From assembly GCF_003334405.1 (NCBI RefSeq), contig NZ_QOWM01000010.1: 64,000 bases of DNA; one strand, given 5' to 3'. A program made the position numbers and the translations under genes. This DNA is from Escherichia coli. GTDB lineage: Bacteria > Pseudomonadota > Gammaproteobacteria > Enterobacterales > Enterobacteriaceae. The notes under the pieces were generated by a model, which saw nothing but the letters and a program-made list of their open reading frames with translations, made no database searches and was not told the DNA's origin. Positions 51,681 through 51,725 of this stretch are shown here, one piece after another (the first letter of the stretch is position 1; each line of letters opens with the position of its first letter).

Positions 51681-51725
51681 CGCCCCCTCACCCTAACCCT
51701 CTCCCCAAGGGGGCGAGGGGACCGT
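51681..51725. repeat. GC-rich imperfect palindrome (boxC-like small repeat / bidirectional terminator) between convergent hemB and tauD
   Basis: cgccccctcaccctaaccctctccccaagggggcgaggggaccg; C-rich and G-rich arms form an imperfect hairpin; resembles a dispersed E. coli GC-rich repeat family. Confidence 0.45.

Follow-up and report, generated by a model that had tools for sequence, protein, structure and literature searches.

The convergent Escherichia coli genes hemB and tauD are separated by a spacer of 106 nt, and within this spacer lies a compact, GC-rich palindrome; the question raised by the locus is what this element is, and whether it ends the transcripts of the two genes that run toward it. 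The original prediction, made from the sequence alone, took the palindrome for a boxC-like member of a dispersed repeat family that probably acts as a bidirectional terminator. The locus was analyzed in the window, by which we mean the whole 64,000-nt stretch of DNA under study; in it the two stop codons fall at 51630 and 51737, and the genes are identified by their 100% identity to E. coli K-12 together with the RefSeq annotation:

50623-51630, plus strand: hemB (porphobilinogen synthase), from the K-12 annotation; its 3' UTR carries the element as C-rich RNA (-24 to -25 kcal/mol)
51737-52588, minus strand: tauD (taurine dioxygenase), the last gene of tauABCD, from the K-12 annotation; its 3' UTR carries the element as G-rich RNA (-36 to -37 kcal/mol)

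The element stands out in composition from its flanks, as had been described: in 45-nt windows its GC content is 0.69-0.71; the adjoining part of the spacer upstream has 0.40, and on the downstream side the value goes from 0.53 down to 0.49. The sequence originally quoted for it is indeed present in the window from 51681; it is 44 nt long and ends at 51724, so that the end given as 51725 was one base too far. Two pairs of palindrome arms were found, one of 10 nt with 90% complementarity (51684-51693 and 51711-51720) and one of 8 nt with 100% complementarity (51681-51688 and 51708-51715). The GC-rich imperfect palindrome as a whole is 35-36 nt long and occupies 51684-51719; with its pairing flanks it extends over 51676-51729, which is approximately the classical BoxC unit of ~56 bp. 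Its parts, and a second repeat that overlaps its edge, are as follows:

51684-51719, minus strand: BoxC/PIT/TMECO core of type 'A mm', 5'-CCCTCGCCCC CTT GGGGAGAGGG TTA GGGTGAGGGG-3', equal to MG1655 388,664-388,699
51710-51719, minus strand: C-arm CCCTCGCCCC, from reading of the sequence and from the folds; it pairs with either G-arm
51697-51706, minus strand: G-arm 1 GGGGAGAGGG, from reading of the sequence and the alignment of 26 K-12 copies; preceded on this strand by the loop CTT (51707-51709) and followed by the loop TTA (51694-51696)
51683-51693, minus strand: G-arm 2 GGGTGAGGGGG, from reading of the sequence and the HPG1 G4-hairpin class listing
51676-51729, minus strand: extended hairpin, with the flanks GTGGACGGTC (51729-51720) and GCGTTCAC (51683-51676) paired in the minus-strand RNA fold
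51649-51688, plus strand: second inverted repeat, AGGGGGAGTTAACC / GGTGAACGCCCCCT, of 14 nt and 86% complementarity

This palindrome belongs to the BoxC family of E. coli, a GC-rich repeat that is dispersed over the genome at strictly intergenic sites and whose design consists of one C-arm and two G-arms. The family has been described under several names: BoxC, dating from the 1990s (Bachellier et al.); PIT elements, for 'potential intrastrand triplex' (Hoyne et al. 2000; Hoyne & Maher 2000, 2002); TMECO (Holder et al. 2015, PMC4666352); and HPG1, a 'G-quadruplex-hairpin-duplex switch' motif (Kaplan et al. 2016, PMC5100583). The published consensus, 5'-CCCTCNCCC N3-6 GGGNGAGGG N3 GGGNGAGGG-3' (PMC4666352), is matched exactly by a single stretch of the window, minus-strand positions 51685-51719, and by nothing in 100 shuffles; a 22-mer of the element likewise matches once in the window and in 0 of 100 shuffles. 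When coordinates are mapped to MG1655 (window position x is 440383 - x there, with the strands exchanged), the hemB-tauD copy is identical in both sequence and position to the entry TMECO no. 5 of Holder et al. (PMC4666352, Table 1), which is given there as CCCTCGCCCCCTTGGGGAGAGGGTTAGGGTGAGGGG at MG1655 388,664-388,699 and typed 'A mm'; the same copy appears as HPGQ13 in Kaplan et al. (PMC5100583), with a midpoint of 388,688 and the context tauD>>>31 / 54<<<hemB. It shares with the BoxC/PIT/TMECO/HPG1 family the consensus, the three-block architecture, the intergenic site, the copy number and the type ('A mm', with TTA as second loop), with no difference in the core. The earlier guess at a dispersed boxC-like repeat was thus correct, and the BoxC between hemB and tauD is in fact already known, down to the individual copy, from two published catalogues. 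The K-12 RefSeq annotation carries no feature at the element, and an Rfam search of 51400-52000 in E-value mode returned only sub-threshold chance hits (for example, Antizyme_FSE at 17.5 bits) and no known RNA family.

Counting copies by BLAST, which had been suggested as a check, shows the element to be multi-copy: of 5,426 complete E. coli genomes searched by blastn with the 106-nt spacer, 5,409 have hits, at 82,182 places in all; the median genome has 17 and K-12 has 19. Taking all published K-12 loci and two degenerate ones by their published coordinates, we find 26 BoxC cores at 21 loci, every one of which is intergenic and 19 of which lie downstream of at least one gene end. In an alignment with the 25 other K-12 copies the hemB-tauD core is perfect, as is the core of most of the others; its outer flanks (GTGGACGGTC ... 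GCGTTCAC) deviate from the K-12 flank consensus gYGCnCGGwCrGTC ... GAAnAG..GCAC. The flank that follows G-arm 2 is conserved across the 26 copies and A-rich (GAAAAG/GAACAG). BoxC sometimes occurs in inverted doublets, five of them in K-12, and by comparison with these the repeat AGGGGGAGTTAACC / GGTGAACGCCCCCT might be the remnant of an inverted partner element.

The REP/BIME (PU) elements of enterobacteria resemble BoxC in being GC-rich palindromes that are dispersed outside genes, for the most part on their downstream side, and were considered as another identity for the hemB-tauD element. They differ from BoxC, with its three C/G/G blocks, in sequence and in number, ~300-500 copies per genome versus ~20-30, and with the element found at ~17-19 places per genome rather than hundreds this assignment was rejected. 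PU-BIME number 301-485 in E. coli, with BoxC entered as a separate family in the same table (PMC2267715).

RNA folding, computed for Watson-Crick and wobble pairs, shows a strong hairpin in the transcripts of both genes, and a much stronger one in tauD mRNA. Over the 55 nt of 51676-51730, the minus-strand RNA (tauD sense) folds with -35.9 kcal/mol (z = -4.3; 0 of 200 shuffles as good) and the plus-strand RNA (hemB sense) with -24.0 kcal/mol (z = -2.3; 4 of 200 shuffles as good), and the core with 16 nt on each side reaches -37.3 kcal/mol on the minus strand. DNA parameters give the same strand asymmetry, -14.9 kcal/mol (minus) versus -11.1 kcal/mol (plus). Pairing of the C-arm with G-arm 2 requires a G-U wobble in RNA, and its pairing with G-arm 1 contains the G-A mismatch for which 'mm' stands in the type name; the hairpin is stronger in the tauD transcript because G6 of the C-arm (CCCTCGCCC) wobbles with the T of G-arm 2 (G-U/G-T), a pair that becomes a C-A mismatch in the complementary strand. 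Among the 26 K-12 copies the one between hemB and tauD forms the most stable RNA hairpin on the G-rich strand, owing to its outer flanks, which pair with one another. The arms, the RNA folds and the gene orientations therefore all agree with the imperfect hairpin between convergent genes that was first described. In hemB-sense RNA the repeat AGGGGGAGTTAACC / GGTGAACGCCCCCT, which overlaps the edge of BoxC, competes with the BoxC hairpin: the minimum free energy structure of the whole spacer on the plus strand uses this repeat, and is no better than that of shuffles (z = -0.41).

The original prediction went on to read this hairpin as a bidirectional terminator, that is, as a structure that would itself release RNA polymerase arriving from either hemB or tauD without the help of Rho. 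The placement of a strong GC-rich hairpin midway between convergent genes favors this, and canonical intrinsic terminators share with BoxC a GC-rich stem-loop after stop codons, here of -35.9 kcal/mol (minus) and -24.0 kcal/mol (plus). They differ in having a 7-8 nt U-tract 3' of the stem, a correctly oriented upstream A-tract and independence of Rho, all of which are lacking at the hemB-tauD BoxC: the stem is followed by UCCACUCUCG on the plus strand and by CGUACUUUCA on the minus strand. In favor of a terminator, the tauD strand does have a short UUU, 5-7 nt past the outer stem (CGUACUUUC). Whichever way the 26 K-12 copies are read, no U-tract comes after the hairpin in any of them, and a promoter/terminator scan of the spacer found no terminator-like and no promoter-like site. 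According to PMC4666352, which cites Hoyne & Maher 2002, PIT elements showed neither promoter nor terminator activity when tested with reporters.

Published maps of RNA 3' ends bear on the same point. The curated Term-seq 3' ends of Adams 2021, from LB at OD600 ~0.4, LB at OD600 ~2.0 and M63, include none within MG1655 388,300-388,899 in any of the three growth conditions, so that the hemB and tauD ends expected here from the original prediction were not found, and hemB is absent from every supplementary file of that study. The TERMITe and SMRT-Cappable-seq supplements mention neither hemB nor tauD. Absence from the curated list is weak evidence, since no more than 882-1,175 dominant ends are listed for each condition, and adk, tusA, tldD and pstA are missing as well. 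The tauABCD operon is repressed in sulfate-replete media, and its repression in the media used explains why a tauD 3' end goes unobserved in the published data.

On the hemB strand, transcription reads through the element and is Rho-dependent downstream. Supplementary file 2 of Adams 2021 lists a Rho termination region whose best-scoring position, 388,499 on the minus strand of MG1655 (window ~51884), lies 165 nt past the element within antisense tauD; this position is approximate, since the Rho score was computed in 800-nt windows. Reads upstream and downstream of the region numbered 86 and 33 without the Rho inhibitor bicyclomycin and 146 and 213 with it (Rho score 3.80, p = 2e-9). The downstream/upstream ratio thus rises from 0.38 to 1.46 with bicyclomycin, indicating that polymerase coming from hemB passes the element and is then stopped by Rho. 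The stretch concerned is:

51720-51900, plus strand: region downstream of the element on the hemB strand, with more C than G up to ~51795; it holds the best-scoring Rho position

GC skew in this stretch is -0.42 to -0.18 in plus-strand windows starting at 51720-51750. With no U-tract, no called Term-seq end and Rho-dependent read-through, the BoxC between hemB and tauD is not an intrinsic terminator; what stands of the terminator claim is a weaker statement, that other BoxC copies mark RNA 3' ends in both orientations.

A search for the motif in the 3'-end sequence strings of Adams 2021 shows that 7 of the 21 K-12 BoxC loci have curated 3' ends from Term-seq at the base of the hairpin:

164636, plus strand: hrpB 3' UTR, C-rich RNA
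624567, minus strand: fepB-entC region, C-rich RNA
632098, plus strand: after cstA, C-rich RNA
847200, minus strand: glnH-glnP spacer, in all three conditions, G-rich RNA
3781065, plus strand: lldD, C-rich RNA
3959467, minus strand: ppiC 3' UTR, G-rich RNA
4231270, minus strand: yjbD 3' UTR, C-rich RNA

In the C-rich orientation these ends lie +4, +4, +5, +11 and +12 nt from the core, and in the G-rich orientation 3-4 nt past the inner hairpin. BoxC-associated rows make up 9 of the 3,110 in the data set, where ~0.26 would be expected at random, or ~2 on the assumption that ends can fall only within 12% of the genome. The end at the lldD BoxC scores 1.32 as an intrinsic terminator, where the threshold is 3, and is flagged as lying within a Rho termination region (Adams 2021). 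The gcvP transcript ends at a canonical terminator of the gene's own, upstream of its BoxC pair, and adk is highly expressed and carries BoxC 24 nt after its stop codon, yet has no called end. Term-seq does not separate termination from processing. The BoxC copies that mark 3' ends are most likely exonuclease-resistant hairpins rather than terminators.

Three of the sites with called ends deserve a description of their own. The copy in the glnH-glnP spacer (NC_000913 847191-847225) is a slightly degenerate BoxC inside the glnHPQ operon and coincides with the strong end 847200 on the minus strand, which scores 30,332 and 130,459 in two of the three conditions; this is the arrangement known for REP elements that stabilize an upstream binding-protein message. 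In the divergent fepB-entC region (NC_000913, minus strand), the abundant ends 624567 and 624680 in M63 flank an inverted BoxC pair upstream of fepB, one of them 12 nt past a type A core (score 50,301) and the other 4 nt before a type B core (score 243,213), and may come from RNAs that are terminated early, or processed, in the fepB leader. At the end 2945855 on the minus strand of NC_000913 (supplementary file 1 of Adams 2021), BoxC-like arms, AGGGTGAGGG-ATAA-CCTCGCCCT, stand at the 3' end and are followed by TTTTT, which hints that a BoxC-like arm pair with a U-tract can become an ordinary intrinsic terminator.

A known class of transcripts suggests what the hairpin between hemB and tauD might do. 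Dar & Sorek 2018 (PMC6061677) described Rho-dependent transcripts that end at stable, U-less stem-loops, with more C than G downstream, after trimming by PNPase and RNase II. REP elements are the repeat known to play this part: their hairpins shield upstream mRNA from 3' exonucleases, with Rho termination downstream of REP. The hemB-tauD element shares with this class the stable U-less stem-loop, the excess of C over G just downstream and, on the hemB strand, the bicyclomycin-sensitive read-through; it differs in that the class has a steady-state 3' end at the hairpin base, which among BoxC copies is seen only at the seven other loci. By analogy with those BoxC copies and with REP elements, we propose that in hemB and tauD transcripts terminated by Rho the element may serve as a stem-loop without a U-tract at which 3' exonucleases are halted, a role we advance tentatively, its chances being a little short of even. 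As a single account of the locus, the BoxC identity together with such a protective role is the best explanation we have, and we consider the case for it to be evenly balanced.

In the proposed mechanism, transcription from either convergent gene would produce a stable stem-loop lacking a U-tract, and RNA polymerase would read through it; Rho would end transcription beyond it, within the C-rich RNA that is antisense to the opposite gene, after which the 3'-to-5' exonucleases PNPase and RNase II would trim the RNA back to the hairpin, leaving the hairpin as the protected 3' end of the hemB and tauD mRNAs. The predicted processed end would lie at about window 51723-51731 (plus strand) for hemB mRNA and at about 51672-51693 (minus strand) for tauD mRNA.

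Variation among strains bears on this proposal from two sides. The BoxC spacer is present in 3,602 of the 5,426 complete E. coli genomes, and 1,820 have instead an unrelated 39-nt spacer without BoxC (e.g. APEC O18 and O158:H23; positions 198-242 of those loci versus window 51628-51739), so that about one third of genomes lack the element here, which counts against a protective role for it. The two alleles have no spacer sequence in common, and the 39-nt allele nevertheless has, at the same place, a different and perfect 10-bp hairpin, AUGCCGGGUU-AUCC-AACCCGGCAU, of -16.7 and -17.2 kcal/mol on the two strands and again without a U-tract; that each allele has a stem-loop suggests that such a structure is what is kept between hemB and tauD. 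Also weighing against protection by the hairpin are the lack of a called Term-seq end at hemB-tauD itself, the adk copy with none despite its position, and the earlier functional studies of BoxC/PIT elements, which as summarized in PMC4666352 found no phenotype.

A further 229 of the genomes with the BoxC spacer carry it in a form that is longer by 51 nt (e.g. strain WG5::PA2, ~288-338 of the locus), with the extra segment inserted after window position 51719. The segment is bounded by two similar direct repeats of 17-18 nt (GGGACTGTCCGTGCTCGC / GGTGACCGTCCACTCTCG), which suggest either that slippage or deletion made the K-12 form or that duplication made the long one.

The main rival to a protective hairpin is a neutral or selfish repeat, which we think unlikely overall, with the larger part of the weight against it. 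On this account the element would have no RNA-level role at hemB-tauD and would persist because the spot between two 3' ends is harmless, its spread acting at the DNA level through unusual structure, recombination or slippage, and the 3' ends at other loci being incidental to a stable hairpin. Several observations are what one would expect of such a repeat: 34% of complete genomes are without the element here, the whole spacer being replaced rather than cleanly deleted; the 51-nt variant recurs in 229 genomes; Holder et al. 2015 (PMC4666352) report raised variability around TMECO loci and assign them no function; 19 of the 21 K-12 loci are downstream of a gene end, as would follow if insertions into promoters are selected against; and no 3' end is called between hemB and tauD. 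Against it stand the Term-seq ends at the hairpin base of seven other loci, which imply that the hairpin shapes transcripts where it is expressed, the strong hairpin of the alternative allele, and a core that is perfectly conserved in the hemB-tauD copy and in most others.

Improbable, in our view, is a switch to a non-B structure in DNA (or RNA), in which the G-rich strand would adopt an intrastrand purine-motif triplex or a G-quadruplex instead of hairpin or duplex and thereby modulate replication, transcription or the local mutation rate. In its three-block design the element corresponds exactly to a class II intrastrand triplex. CD, NMR and melting data published for oligonucleotides of type A mm show melting at ~74 C in vitro, and the structure found for the full oligonucleotide was a triplex rather than a G4 (Holder et al. 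2015, PMC4666352). The two G-arms together supply four G-runs (G4, G3, G3, G5) separated by 3-nt loops, and so a canonical G-quadruplex motif (four runs of at least 3 G, loops of 1-7 nt) is found as GGGG-AGA-GGG-TTA-GGG-TGA-GGGGG at 51706-51683 on the minus strand, as a sequence motif only; the element is listed among G4-hairpin-duplex switch candidates (PMC5100583), analogous motifs occur in methanogenic archaea (PMC8044849), and the 21-nt core turns up unaltered in different phyla. A stable triplex, however, was not supported by DMS footprinting in vivo or by CD/NMR of the duplex (PMC4666352), and earlier work, as cited in that paper, reported no in vivo effect on replication, conjugation or promoter/terminator activity, and that purine-motif triplexes do not form in RNA.

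Least probable of all, and very improbable given the missing U-tracts, the read-through that rises with bicyclomycin, the low score of the lldD end and the negative PIT reporter assays (as cited in PMC4666352), is that the hairpin itself terminates transcription in both directions, despite its position and the 3' ends that other BoxC copies mark in either orientation. A hairpin that protects Rho-terminated transcripts is the role that we favor for this copy of BoxC.

The BoxC core is found far outside E. coli. In a scan of contigs, its exact 21-nt G-rich part, GGGAGAGGGTTAGGGTGAGGG, occurs in at least 120 stretches; very distant bacteria, and a single archaeal MAG, have several copies of it in each genome. 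Among the matches listed are Pseudomonas (sp. dw_612), Asticcacaulis, Bradyrhizobium, Polaromonas, Verrucomicrobiales, Thermodesulfobacteriota, a Gracilibacteria MAG (CPR) and a Methanomicrobiaceae MAG. In nearly all of the matches listed the 21-mer is preceded by a CCCTC[T/G]CCC arm and a loop of 3-6 nt, with one clear exception, and among them its flanks are conserved only within species. The intergenic repeats of Methanomicrobiaceae, which combine a G4 motif with a C-tract and form hairpin, triplex or G4 in vitro (PMC8044849), are like BoxC in having a four-G-run motif next to a complementary C-tract; they differ in the order of the blocks, the C-tract lying 3' of the G-runs there and 5' in BoxC. 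One Methanomicrobiaceae MAG contig has the bacterial (BoxC) arrangement with the exact 21-mer.

When ORFs within 1.5 kb of the motif were clustered at the foreign loci among the matches listed (at least 120), no recurrent mobilization gene was found, which is a weak negative; only ABC ATPases, LysR regulators and two-component systems recurred. We know of no dedicated transposase for BoxC. A wide distribution of BoxC-type motifs had been reported earlier (PMC4666352, PMC8044849).

For the hemB-tauD locus, these results mean that the annotation should read BoxC/PIT/TMECO and not terminator; the original prediction itself adds nothing new on the role of BoxC or on the identity of its core across phyla. 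It is conceivable, if doubtful, that BoxC constitutes a second, REP-like class of orientation-independent RNA 3'-end modules whose core would be kept or spread by a conserved sequence-specific factor, for example a mobilizing enzyme or an RNA- or DNA-binding protein, and not by structure alone. For the family as a whole, the 3' ends at seven BoxC hairpins, together with the low intrinsic-terminator score and the association with Rho, point to a concrete, testable role for BoxC at the level of RNA.
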